Below are positions 11,280 to 54,896 of a stretch of 64,000 nucleotides of DNA, in pieces (the first letter of the stretch is position 1; each line of letters opens with the position of its first letter). The notes under the pieces are model-generated. The model was not told where the DNA came from. It worked only from the letters and a program-made list of their open reading frames with translations, and made no database searches. Location of the stretch: the NCBI GenBank assembly GCA_951406725.2, contig OX597832.1, forward strand, positions 32,426,001-32,490,000, given 5' to 3'. The stretch comes from Octopus vulgaris (lineage: Eukaryota). The translations under genes were made by a program, and so were the position numbers.

Positions 11280-11695
11280 GAAAAAACAACAAAATTATGA
11301 ATGAAAGGGCATATGCAAAAACAGGAAAAACAGAAAAAAACAAATTTATGAATGAAAGGGTATATGTAAAACAGAAAAAACCCCAGAAAAGAAACAACAA
11401 AATTATGAATGAAAGGGTACATGTAAAAACAGAAAAAAAAAAGAAAAAAACAAAATTATGAATGATAGGGTATAGGTAGAAACAGGGAAAAACAGAAAAA
11501 AATTATTATTGAACGGGTATATTTAAAAACAGAAGAAAAGCAGAAAAACAAAATTATGAATGAAAGGGTATAGGTAAAACAGAAAAACAGAAAAAACAAA
11601 ATTATGAATGAAAGGGTACATGTAAAAACAGAAACCCTCAGAAAAAACAAAATTATGAACGAAAGGGTATATGTAAAACAGAAAAAAATACCCTG
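11280..11695 (+). repeat. Minisatellite, 8 units of ~50 bp
   Basis: Core 'aaattatgaatgaaagggtatatgtaaaacagaaaa' at ~11291, 11342, 11399, 11452, 11499, 11550, 11598 and 11649. Confidence 0.92.
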
Positions 11696-47540: not shown

Positions 47541-47880
<340 letters not shown>

Positions 47881-47934: not shown

Positions 47935-48605
47935 AGTCCTCTGGACATCAACAACATCAGTGCCGGATTAGGCACTAATATGTGATGTATCGTTGACGGG
48001 TGATTCGGCTTTTATGTAACTACTGGATGTCCATCGGTGATAAATGCAAAACAAGGCGAGAACATGCGATCTAGCAGTTCTGGCGGCTGTAGTAGACGAA
48101 TCTTGTTTGTCAATGATATAAATACGAGTGCCTTTATGCACCACGAAACCATATAAGAGGTCCTCTCGTGCTAAATAACGTAGTACTCTTTGTCATACAT
48201 ATGTTTGTGTGTGCGTGTGTGTATGTGCGTATGTGTGTGTACATATATATATATATATATACATATATATGCGTGTGTATTTGGGTATATATATATAAAT
48301 ATAAATGTATATGTATATATATATATATATAATTAATTAATAAGGGTGAGAGAATTAGATACTAATTTAATAGTATATCCATTCAACACCAAGTGGCCCA
48401 GTGCTCCGAGAAACCTGGATTATTATAATATTTTATAATATATTATAATATTTTTACAAAAATAAATATAAGAGAGTGGTCACATATGGCTCACTCTAGC
48501 ACTAGTTAATCCAAAAGGTTTCAACCACAAAAATACATGTTTCCCATGAAAGTCAGTACGATTGTTAGCTCACACGAACAGGGCAAATAAAAAATAACAA
48601 AAATA

Positions 48606-48700
48606 CAGATTATTTTGGGACAATTGTTTCGCTATTAATGAATTAAATGTAATTTTACTTACAAAAAAATCCACTGTAGCTCCTCAGCCAAAACTATCTG
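48606..48700 (-). ncRNA. Type I hammerhead ribozyme (inverted second copy)
   Basis: Plus strand reads ttttgg-ga-caattg-tttc-gcta...tagc-tcctcag-ccaaaa (48613-48693), the reverse complement of the 49599-49680 motif with core and stems intact. Confidence 0.87.
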
Positions 48701-49591
48701 GATGAAATCCACTCAATCACACGCCAGATTTTACCATAACGATAAATACACGTGTGGTTCAATTGATTACATCCGACGTTATAATTCAAATGCCCCTACT
48801 AACAGCGCGCCAAACTTTCAGGGAAACAAATACTACATTTAGAAATAAATGTAGCATAATTATAATTGATTAATAAGGGTGAGAGAATTAGATACTAAGT
48901 TAATAGTATATCCATTCAACACCAAGTGGCCCAGTGCTCCGAGAAACCTGGATTATTATAATATTTTATAATATATTATAATATTTTTACAAAAATAAAT
49001 ATAAGAGAGTGGTCACTATATGGCTCACTCTAGCACTAGTTAATCCAAAAGGTTTCAACCACAAAAATATTTCGTGGATTATATTTATTTTTGTAAAAAT
49101 ATTATAATATATTATAAAATATTATAATAATCCAGGTTTCTCGGAGCACTGTATTTTTGTTATTTTTTATTTGCCCTGTCCGTGTGAGCTAACAATCGTA
49201 CTGACTTTCATGGGAAACATGTATTTTTGTGGTTGAAACCTTTTGGATTAACTAGTGCTAGAGTGAGCCATATAGTGACCACTCTCTTATATTTATTTTT
49301 GTAAAAATATTATAATATATTATAAAATATTATAATAATCCAGGTTTCTCGGAGCACTGGGCCACTTGGTGTTGAATGGATATACTATTAACTTAGTATC
49401 TAATTCTCTCACCCTTATTAATCAATTATAATTATGCTACATTTATTTCTAAATGCAGTATTTGTTTTCCGTGAGAGTTTGGCGCGCTGTTAGTTGGGGC
49501 ATTTGAATTATAACGTCGGATGTAATCAATTGAACCACACGTGTATTTATCGTTATGGTAATATCTGGCGTGTGATTGAGTGGATTTCATC

Positions 49592-49687
49592 CAGATAGTT
49601 TTGGCTGAGGAGCTACGAGTGGATTTTTTTGTAAGTAAAATTACATTTAATTCATTAATAGCGAAACAATTGTCCCAAAATAATCTG
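49592..49687 (+). ncRNA. Type I hammerhead ribozyme
   Basis: TTTTGG(49599-604)-CTGAGGA(49605-611)-GCTA...TAGC(49612-15/49659-62)-GAAA(49663-66)-CAATTG-TC(49673-74)-CCAAAA(49675-80). All core positions match CUGANGA/GAAA/UH. Stem I extends via CAGAT/ATCTG. Confidence 0.88.
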
Positions 49688-49829
49688 TATTTTTGTTATT
49701 TTTTATTTGCCCTGTTCGTGTGAGCTAACAATCGTACTGACTTTCATGGGAAACATGTATTTTTGTGGTTGAAACCTTTTGGATTAACTAGTGCTAGAGT
49801 GAGCCATATAGTGACCACTCTCTTATATT

Positions 49830-49865
<36 letters not shown>

Positions 49866-49960
49866 TTGCATATATACATATATATGTATACGTCTATATC
49901 TATATCTATCTATCTATCCATCTATCTATCTCTCCCTCTCCCTCACTCTCTCTCTCTCTC

Positions 49961-53676: not shown

Positions 53677-54896
53677 GACATTTCTTATAGATTTCCCCTG
53701 CCCCACATATCAAGGATCGGGATAAACGAAACTTAGAATAATTATTGGTCTTTCTCTACATAGCCCCCACAAATGGTCACACACTTCACCCCTCGCTATA
53801 TTCAGCTGTGAAGACCTCTTTTGTACCAGTCGGTAGGATGCATCTGGATCCAAGACTTTACACCGGAAATATCCGAAAATTGCTTCCCTTTCAAAAATGA
53901 GTTCATGGTTGGAAAGAGGTGGAAGTTACATGGTGCGAGGTGGGGAGAGTAAGGGAGAGCAGGAAGGATTTCATAGCCGCGGGTATGTGCTTCCATCTGG
54001 GCAACATGCGCATTGTGAACTGAGGTGTTGTCTTCGAGGAGGTGGACTTCTTTGACCAGCATGCCACGCCCCTCTGCTTTGATGGCGTCCCGCATTTTCT
54101 GCAGCAGAGAAGCATACTTGTTAATAATTGTGGTGTCCTTTTCCAGTAAATCCATCAGCATTAATCCGCTCTGGCCCCAAAAGACTGCGAGCATCACCTT
54201 GACCGCTGAAAGCTGGACACGAGCATTCTTTGGCGGTGGTGAGTTATCATGCTTTCAATGCTTATACTGGACTTTAGTCTCAGGATCATAGTGTTGGCCC
54301 CATGTTTCAACCTGTACGATATGTCTATCGAAAAAGTCCTCGTTTTCTCGGCACATTGCTAAAAGTGCCTGGGAGCAATTGCCTCGTTCTTGCTTCTGAA
54401 AAGTTGTGAGCATCCGGGGAATTCCTCGTACAGACCGCTTCCACATGTTCAAATGTTCGTGAATGACTTTTTCCACGGATCCTACACTTATCGTCACTTC
54501 TTGGGCTAGTTGCCAAATAGTTATGCGGCGATCCTCCAAAATGCCAGATTCCACTTTACGGGTGGTGTCCTCATCAATGGCGGAATATAGTCGTCCAGGA
54601 GTAGGAGTGTTTTCTACCGATGTCCGACCACATTTGACCTGGCGATGTTAGTGCTTGACTACGTCGTATGATGTTGCATCGTCACCATAAACTTCTTTCA
54701 TCTCATCAAAAGTCTCTTTTGGTGTACAACCTTTCAAGTATTAGAACCTGATCGCTGATCTGCATTCAACTGCCTCCATTATAACACCTTAGTCCAGTTC
54801 CGCAGCCGTAAAAGACAAACGAATACTAGTGAAATGCCGCAATTTACAACCTGACATGCCCAAGCTCTGTTTCCTGCAATAACCGAACACCCCTCG
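53672..54896 (-). mobile_element. Mariner (DD34D) DNA transposon, near full-length, inactivated; transposase pseudogene ~54779-53742
   Basis: MEAVECRSAIRF*YLKG...EDRRIT...GIPRML...VETW..HYDPETK...VFWGQSG...EDNTSVH...PYSPHLAPCNFHLFP...GGYVEK. The right end is 'cacccctcg|ta' and the left end is a degenerate 'ta|taaggga'. Inserted in (TA)n. Confidence 0.92.

Follow-up and report, generated by a model that had tools for sequence, protein, structure and literature searches.

The locus studied here raises the question of what a hammerhead motif with a palindromic stem III and a long stem II is doing in the octopus genome, and whether it would cut alone or in pairs. In the present study, the window (the whole 64-kb stretch of DNA that was analysed) was searched for the fold, and relatives were sought across the 2.8-Gb assembly, to which all genome-wide counts refer. 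Our reading, to which we give a probability of roughly two in three, is that the type I hammerhead belongs to a 535-nt non-autonomous Penelope-type repeat (a non-LTR retrozyme), that this repeat likely enters (TA)n through the activity of a borrowed Penelope enzyme, and that its ribozymes are expected to cleave for the most part as double hammerheads. Retrozymes, a palindromic stem III and cleavage as dimers have all been published before. The apparent novelty lies in a long conserved arm that characterises the prevailing hammerhead form of this genome, and in junction-level evidence for the mobilising reaction. In the published accounts, the enzyme that mobilises animal retrozymes is an open question, argued from co-occurrence and pLTR similarity (PMC7229834, bioRxiv 10.64898/2026.07.22.740005); the octopus junctions would be direct footprints of a Penelope-type reaction.

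The hammerhead fold and its insertion

The motif is a genuine type I hammerhead fold, with cleavage predicted at C17 (Table 1). It has the core CUGANGA ... GAAA ... UH and three helices with stem I open, and covariation supports them. Stem I is lengthened by CAGAU/AUCUG past an A-A mismatch. In an alignment of 19 rows (alignment A1), the core bases C, U, G, A, G and A are invariant and N7 (49609) is the sole variable core position, an invariance that is partly built in because the rows were retrieved with patterns that demand the core. A type I descriptor run on the window found exactly two sites, 49605 (+) and 48687 (-), compared with 0.07 loose and 0 strict matches per shuffle in 30 block shuffles. 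The Rfam search of the window gave no hammerhead match at the gathering score or at E<=10, likely because of the 43-nt insert in stem II. This insert folds with both of the helices that the initial annotation had paired, an outer one (GUGGAUU 49619-49625 / AAUUCAU 49649-49655, with two G-U pairs) and an inner one (UGUAA 49630-49634 / UUACA 49641-49645). The arm fold has an energy of -21.1 kcal/mol (z -3.1), which 3 of 200 shuffles equal; for the inner arm of the window copy by itself, 0 of 200 shuffles were equally stable. The intramolecular stem III had also been described as weak, and this agrees with an active monomer fold that lies 3.1 kcal/mol above the ensemble.

Table 1. Positions of the hammerhead, its parts and the surrounding insertion in the window
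Feature	Position	Strand	Remark or basis
Whole type I hammerhead with extended stem I	49592..49687	+	sequence, fold, descriptor scan, covariation
Stem I, 5' strand GUUUUGG	49598..49604	+	7 bp with 49675-49681
Core CUGAGGA (CUGANGA)	49605..49611	+	sequence
Stem II	49612..49662	+	4-bp base, 2x2 internal loop (3' side UURA), 43-nt arm, apical loop GUAAAA
Stem II base GCUA / UAGC	49612-49615 / 49659-49662	+	
Stem II insert, 43 nt	49616-49658	+	
GAA	49663-49665	+	
Palindromic stem III ACAAUUGU	49666..49673	+	
C17, predicted cleavage site (3' side)	49674	+	position in hammerhead consensus
Stem I, 3' strand CCAAAAU	49675..49681	+	pairs with 49598-49604
Plus arm, ~1.3 units of the 535-536-nt non-coding repeat	49149..49833	+	ends at terminus 1 by (TA)n
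One full repeat unit within the plus arm	49298-49833	+	
Additional unit fragment at the inversion point, 73 nt	49079..49151	+	template-switch-like junction
Inverted (head-to-head) arm, ~1.4 units	48323..49069	-	ends at terminus 2 by (TA)n
Second hammerhead	48606..48700	-	stem II internal loop one base shorter
Left (TA)n-rich target flank	48243..48322	.	
Right (TA)n target flank	49834..49917	.	

The plus arm of the insertion is 97.6% identical to a tandem unit of another locus (L097), and the inverted arm is 98.6% identical to the plus arm. The repeat unit contains no ORF with a protein match. Retrozymes of the non-LTR type have target-site duplications longer than 4 bp, but the (TA)n flanks on either side would mask any such duplication, here as in the other arms of the family, and the window is rich in microsatellites, with a GC content of 0.20-0.41 per 2-kb bin. 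The two hammerheads point away from each other and neither strand carries two in the same direction. Furthermore, a read-through RNA of the locus would pair the ribozyme with its inverted copy, as predicted at 13 of 14 sampled positions. Since there is no same-strand partner and the inverted arm would compete by pairing, the locus is likely unable to cleave as a dimer or to release a unit, which probably makes this copy an evolutionary dead end. The earlier proposal of cleavage in a tandem transcript does not fit this site, where the divergent hammerheads cannot supply the tandem; tandem arrays do exist elsewhere. The architecture itself is not special to the window site.

The long stem II arm across the genome

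Alignment A1 consists of 19 hand-picked subfamily representatives, namely 17 of 51 distinct variants (the window included) and two distant-family rows; the first sister family was found via the 3' end alone and the further ones by pattern. On the named structure, 87.7% of the cells are paired, against 78.0% in shuffled alignments (0/500) and 30-39% in slid ones. Double-sided changes occur in 16 of 33 pairs, seven in stem I and seven in stem II and the lower arm, a count that 23 of 500 shuffles reach and that relatedness among the rows inflates. The stem I columns 8-13 / 87-92 have 2-10 double-sided changes each over the 19 rows, and in the apical helix of the arm the variation is mostly one-sided. 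RNAalifold, unprompted, recovered stem I, stem II and the arm with a covariation term of -3.9. From this comparison, the arm is clearly maintained as a helix, and the conservation of stem II pairing among copies, which the initial annotation had put forward for checking, is seen in the covariation of the arm across the 19 subfamilies. In addition, nearly all rows have a YR/AA internal loop in stem I, 7 bp from the core, and a UURA strand in stem II after 4 bp. These conserved internal loops have a spacing compatible with a loop 1-loop 2 contact and may mark the place where it would form. In our reading, the long stem II is a selected RNA helix, likely preserving the contact between stem I and stem II via the internal loop.

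Pair 10.1-11.1 is unpaired in 7 of the 19 rows, with a mismatch in several sister subfamilies. This would suit a ribozyme that is a passenger, its fold kept for structure or protein binding, in an RNA mobilised uncut from linear multimers. As described in PMC11167929, an Anolis PLE inserts in vitro independently of hammerhead cleavage, its ribozyme requires protein, and no read ends at the PAc site. Active hammerheads with U-U at 10.1-11.1 are, however, on record (PMC3088659), and the core bases, UH and the palindrome persist over dozens of families while N7 is free, so that a passenger role seems very improbable to us.

A generic long-armed pattern, in which the core halves are separated by 35-65 nt, gave 15,246 matches genome-wide (control 289), 13,435 of them with an 8-nt stem III. 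With a separation of 5-34 nt the pattern gave 1,064 matches (control 53); relative to the 13,435, the long-armed form dominates the short one 13 to 1 in the octopus genome. Many of these short-spacer matches belong to a tandem family of 353-nt units that has a short stem II and likewise shows the inversions. The short form shows that such a lifestyle does not in general require the arm. In another short-spacer search, two of nine matches belong to the family of the window, compared with its 2,179 long-armed ones; arm loss is rare in this family. The inner arm beats 95% of its shuffles (p<=0.05) in 12 of 27 hand-picked long-armed representatives. One published core descriptor admits only 7-17 nt between the core halves, and the same source mentions, for Naiads, eight 'half-core' cases spaced by 35-50 nt (PMC8557442). 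Taken together, the 13:1 excess of long arms, the Rfam miss and a descriptor of this width suggest that counts of hammerheads in animal genomes may be serious underestimates. Our literature search turned up no paper about retrozymes of cephalopods or about animal hammerheads with a long stem II; Repbase/Dfam may already contain the families. The 353-nt units form a second tandem retrozyme-like family with a ACUCGAGU palindrome and head-to-head inversions (G000:C1:21143774-21144159, C1:180105947-180107390 and many more loci).

The tip of the arm (49631-49638, +) reads GURAGUAA, where the A/G change preserves both the helix and the motif; its invariance in A1 is partly imposed by the search pattern, only subfamilies A-E, D and S having been found without it. 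The GURAGU in the tip agrees with the 5' splice site consensus. A splice-site reading was rejected, as no joint begins there in 8 runs; one GT..AG joint from 49719 to 49804, in a single contig with unknown letters between, was not counted. In the long-armed families sampled, independent loci share under ~600 nt upstream of the motif, and among 91 long-armed motifs extended upstream none was continuous with an ORF. A tentative and in our view rather doubtful suggestion is that long-armed hammerheads are an unrecognised subclass marking non-autonomous Penelope parasites. Their stem II would be a 35-65-nt helix, the internal-loop contact would keep catalysis, and the tip (GURAGUAA in the superfamily of the window copy) would be a protein handle for a borrowed PLE enzyme or a splicing factor, with cleavage licensed only in tandem, protein-bound RNA. 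A two-armed insertion would then be the work of one dimeric PLE enzyme copying a single circle from two starts. If this holds, the subclass would comprise dozens of families and >13,000 copies in the genome.

Palindromic stem III and a predicted double hammerhead

The self-duplex of the 8-mer ACAAUUGU has an energy of -6.4 kcal/mol. We found that the palindrome singled out in the initial annotation is indeed kept: it is retained in 99 of the first 100 of the 2,179 family matches, where N7 is G, C or A, and it stays self-complementary while varying between families. Long-armed hammerheads with an 8-nt stem III number 13,435 (control 40), and by hand count the first 100 of these comprise 79 perfect palindromes, 16 with G-U and 5 with neither. 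Many of the G-U cases may be explicable by CpG decay. The 79 perfect palindromes represent 11 different inner tetramers of 16 possible, in rows that are not independent, where a random tetramer would be palindromic 1 time in 16. These numbers suggest that self-complementarity rather than sequence is maintained. Moreover, the two central bases of stem III are unpairable in a hairpin, yet they are complementary, which points to pairing between two copies. In A1, five of the 19 rows have an imperfect palindrome; the element is mostly just conserved there, with little covariation of its own, and the pairs 15.1-16.1 and 15.2-16.2 are invariant, as the search patterns demand.

Natural tandem dimers were folded from six arrays, and in all six the double hammerhead was the lower-energy active fold. 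Its cost above the free ensemble was 0.5-7.2 kcal/mol, compared with 5.6-9.3 for one monomer fold and 8.7-14.0 for two; in each array it lay 6.5-8.8 kcal/mol under two monomer folds and 2.1-5.5 under one, in nearest-neighbour energies that leave out the core and tertiary contacts. On these models, cleavage as a dimer is a likely reading of the palindrome, and it is a known idea. Palindromic helix III and dimer cleavage were reportedly treated by Forster 1988, and hammerheads of Penelope-like elements are said to be covered by Lunse et al. 2016.

Both features are on record for the hammerheads of newt, ASBVd and PLEs (PMC4209133, PMC6155905, PMC6765202, PMC3088659). As in newt/axolotl satellite 2 and the ASBVd plus strand, where a weak palindromic stem III is rescued by the tandem dimer (PMC6155905, PMC7229834), the octopus stem III would gain from a partner; the published stem III has 1-2 bp beside a canonical short stem II, whereas in the octopus the dimer helix would have 8 bp and stem II bears a long arm. 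The PLE hammerheads of Cervera & de la Pena 2014 (PMC4209133) are likewise type I, with a short palindromic helix III, proposed dimer cleavage and opposite-strand pairs 100-700 bp apart. The motifs given there have a helix II of 6-8 bp and a helix III that is absent or of 2-4 nt, whereas the octopus form has an 8-nt stem III, a 7-bp stem I with an internal loop, a 42-63-nt stem II and no ORF.

The same element could also have a hammerhead that cuts well in vivo as a monomer, assisted by a bound protein or by contact between stems I and II, with a palindrome that only adds speed or is ancestral. The YR/AA loop and the UURA strand are what such a tertiary contact needs, monomers from coral and mussel cleave at ~0.8/min and ~0.1/min (PMC7229834), and the PAc ribozyme is protein-assisted (PMC11167929). 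We nevertheless consider it unlikely, in view of the central bases that no hairpin can pair and that are complementary in 79 of 100 rows (11 sequences; first 100 of 13,435), and of the 5.6-9.3 kcal/mol that monomer folds cost in array context. The coral and mussel monomers, PAc and the Xenopus dimers, of which 8 of 9 stayed uncleaved (bioRxiv 10.64898/2026.07.22.740005), count against a strict dimer rule. From the initial annotation, the preference for the dimer is supported by the folding, which favours the double hammerhead, but the strict need for a tandem is doubtful. With eleven natural palindromes and young arrays that range from 1 to 13 units, both the dimer model and the rolling-circle model can be tested directly.

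The repeat family and its Penelope-like ends

The family hammerhead pattern has 2,179 intact matches genome-wide (control 0). Among the first 100 of them, arrays reach 13 units at a spacing of ~534 nt, usually in the order of a minus run followed by a plus run. The spacing was mostly 531-536 nt in the 8 arrays checked, and the unit closes upon itself at 532-536 nt in 47 complete units. It has a GC content of 0.32-0.33, below 50%, and is strongly self-paired (z -7.25, 0/100 shuffles); circular folds are 64-69% paired, their own shuffles being crude two-letter ones and the z value coming from the proper control. A type I hammerhead in each tandem unit (arrays of 2-13), non-coding sequence and a self-paired monomer are marks of non-LTR retrozymes, which are described with their circles by Cervera & de la Pena 2020 (PMC7229834) and derived from PLEs by Li et al. 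2026 (bioRxiv 10.64898/2026.07.22.740005). Like the metazoan examples in these accounts, the octopus family consists of non-coding, AT-rich tandem units that are strongly self-paired and contain a single type I hammerhead; they are dispersed as monomers to multimers, and autonomous PLEs coexist with them. The unit of 535 nt compares with 150-450 nt (PMC7229834) and up to 972 nt (bioRxiv 10.64898/2026.07.22.740005). Unlike the retrozymes described there, the octopus element has the 43-nt stem II arm and junctions with PLE-type ends, inversion and (TA)n targeting; circles and cleavage, described in print for retrozymes, are predicted for the octopus element.

Mapping of 48 distinct arms gave 25 that stop at terminus 1, 21 at terminus 2, which lies ~130 nt beyond it, and 2 elsewhere (hand tally, with five duplicate loci omitted and L062/L096 entered once); most of them continue into (TA)n. 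Two-armed insertions have one of each terminus in 12 of 14 cases and the same terminus twice in 0 of 14 (hand tally). Two alternative 3' ends (46 of 48 arms), an inverted 5'-truncated neighbour copy and a microsatellite target are the marks of a non-autonomous PLE. PMC8557442 lists the paired ends, the truncated inverted neighbour and the microsatellite targets for PLEs; the tail, inversion and (TA)n bias are described in PMC8557442 and PMC11167929, and PAc initiates reverse transcription internally, at two sites and on both strands of its target (PMC11167929). With the Neptune-type EN+ PLEs (PMC8557442) and Poseidon PAc (PMC11167929), the octopus family shares the two 3' ends, the adjacent inverted 5'-truncated copy and (TA)n/AT-rich targets. 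Unlike these elements as published, its unit is without RT or endonuclease, and the ~130 nt between its ends exceeds the 30-40-bp tail published for PLEs.

In 8 arrays with 2-12 complete units, 26 variant sites were private and 2 shared. Both inverted arms bear one array-specific unit, and locus L189 has 10 identical units spanning both arms. The majority units of different loci are 0-45 substitutions apart, those of L189 and L191 being identical. This homogeneity fits single-event copying of one template, as could occur in rolling-circle reverse transcription of a circle. Since L189 and L191 share one majority unit, a homogeneous linear source array would explain it too.

In the life cycle that we propose, a tandem locus would be transcribed, and two neighbouring ribozymes would join their palindromes as an 8-bp stem III and excise one unit, which would likely be circularised by a host ligase. 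Having just one ribozyme, the circle would be a poor self-cleaver. Both (TA)n strands would be nicked by an RT-GIY-YIG protein of a PLE, reverse transcription would start at two sites 130 nt apart, one per strand, and copying round the template would produce homogeneous arrays in opposite directions.

Every junction feature is PLE-like, and the unit might instead be the terminal repeat (pLTR) of an undiscovered autonomous PLE, with 5'-truncated copies and with arrays formed by later DNA recombination. PLE insertions are described as mostly truncated (bioRxiv 10.64898/2026.07.22.740005), and just 150 of 6,136 GIY-YIG candidates were scored. We judge this origin quite unlikely, as the unit is self-closing in the 47 complete units (532-536 nt), no family locus examined extends into a shared ORF, and an array-specific unit on both inverted arms is not expected from later recombination.

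Among 30 + 20 GIY-YIG loci of the 6,136 candidates, no autonomous element sharing the hammerhead or the ends of the unit was found, and the sole match was a short AT-rich stretch at a (TA)n junction. The tblastn search around 40 + 30 + 20 hammerhead- or end-matched loci gave no ORF-continuous element, the PLE frames nearby being separate or nested insertions. No RT-GIY-YIG ORF lies between the repeats in the window insertion or in the other family loci examined. One autonomous PLE family (L070-L079 of G000, e.g. C16:20834500-20841500) is young: its 781-aa RT-GIY-YIG frame is intact, and a second frame lies upstream in a different phase. The family also has a Cys-rich linker that is Neptune-like by the description in PMC8557442, and CCAAT/CRE-like repeats in the 3' region. 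Its copies share the two-end (TA)n pattern, but their hammerhead is a distinct short one of the U3-A8 form, with ACAUGU. The autonomous families inspected as parent were rejected, having by eye short stem II ribozymes and different palindromes.

Several neighbouring elements were also observed. Another autonomous PLE family (L081, L084, L085, L088) carries a hammerhead-like motif ~500 nt past the frame, with an AGUACU palindrome and, in 2 of 4 copies, a U4-to-C core change (by eye). At L091:4425-5072, a two-armed long-armed insertion lies within (TA)n at the 3' end of a copy of the 781-aa family, which indicates a shared target. At L108:4690-6021, a long-armed element of another family adjoins mid-frame sequence of a PLE in the same orientation, as a nested insertion or a PLE template switch. 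In the window, 47696-47880 (-) is a remnant of another PLE-type repeat between (TA)n runs, with a minimal hammerhead (motif ~47787-47810) that has a short stem II, an ACGU palindrome and a core damaged at C3-U4; this repeat also follows the PLE frame in L108.

All 8 sequencing runs compared consist of contigs, and none has a record as RNA. In six runs guessed to be RNA (three organisms), the unit and its head-to-tail junction are present as contigs, which cannot reveal ends or circles, and tandem DNA yields the identical junction. Run X5 has one cyclic contig of 565 nt (535 + 30), which either a circle or tandem DNA at low coverage would explain. Where the RNA-guess runs differ from the window, they mostly carry the allele that also prevails in the large runs, and therefore no RNA-specific variant is claimed.

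Elsewhere in the window, a 150-aa frame at 53802-54254 (-) has what we take to be a resemblance to the C-terminal part of a mariner-type transposase, and an A-rich minisatellite with a 51-nt period and ~8 copies lies at 11283-11687.
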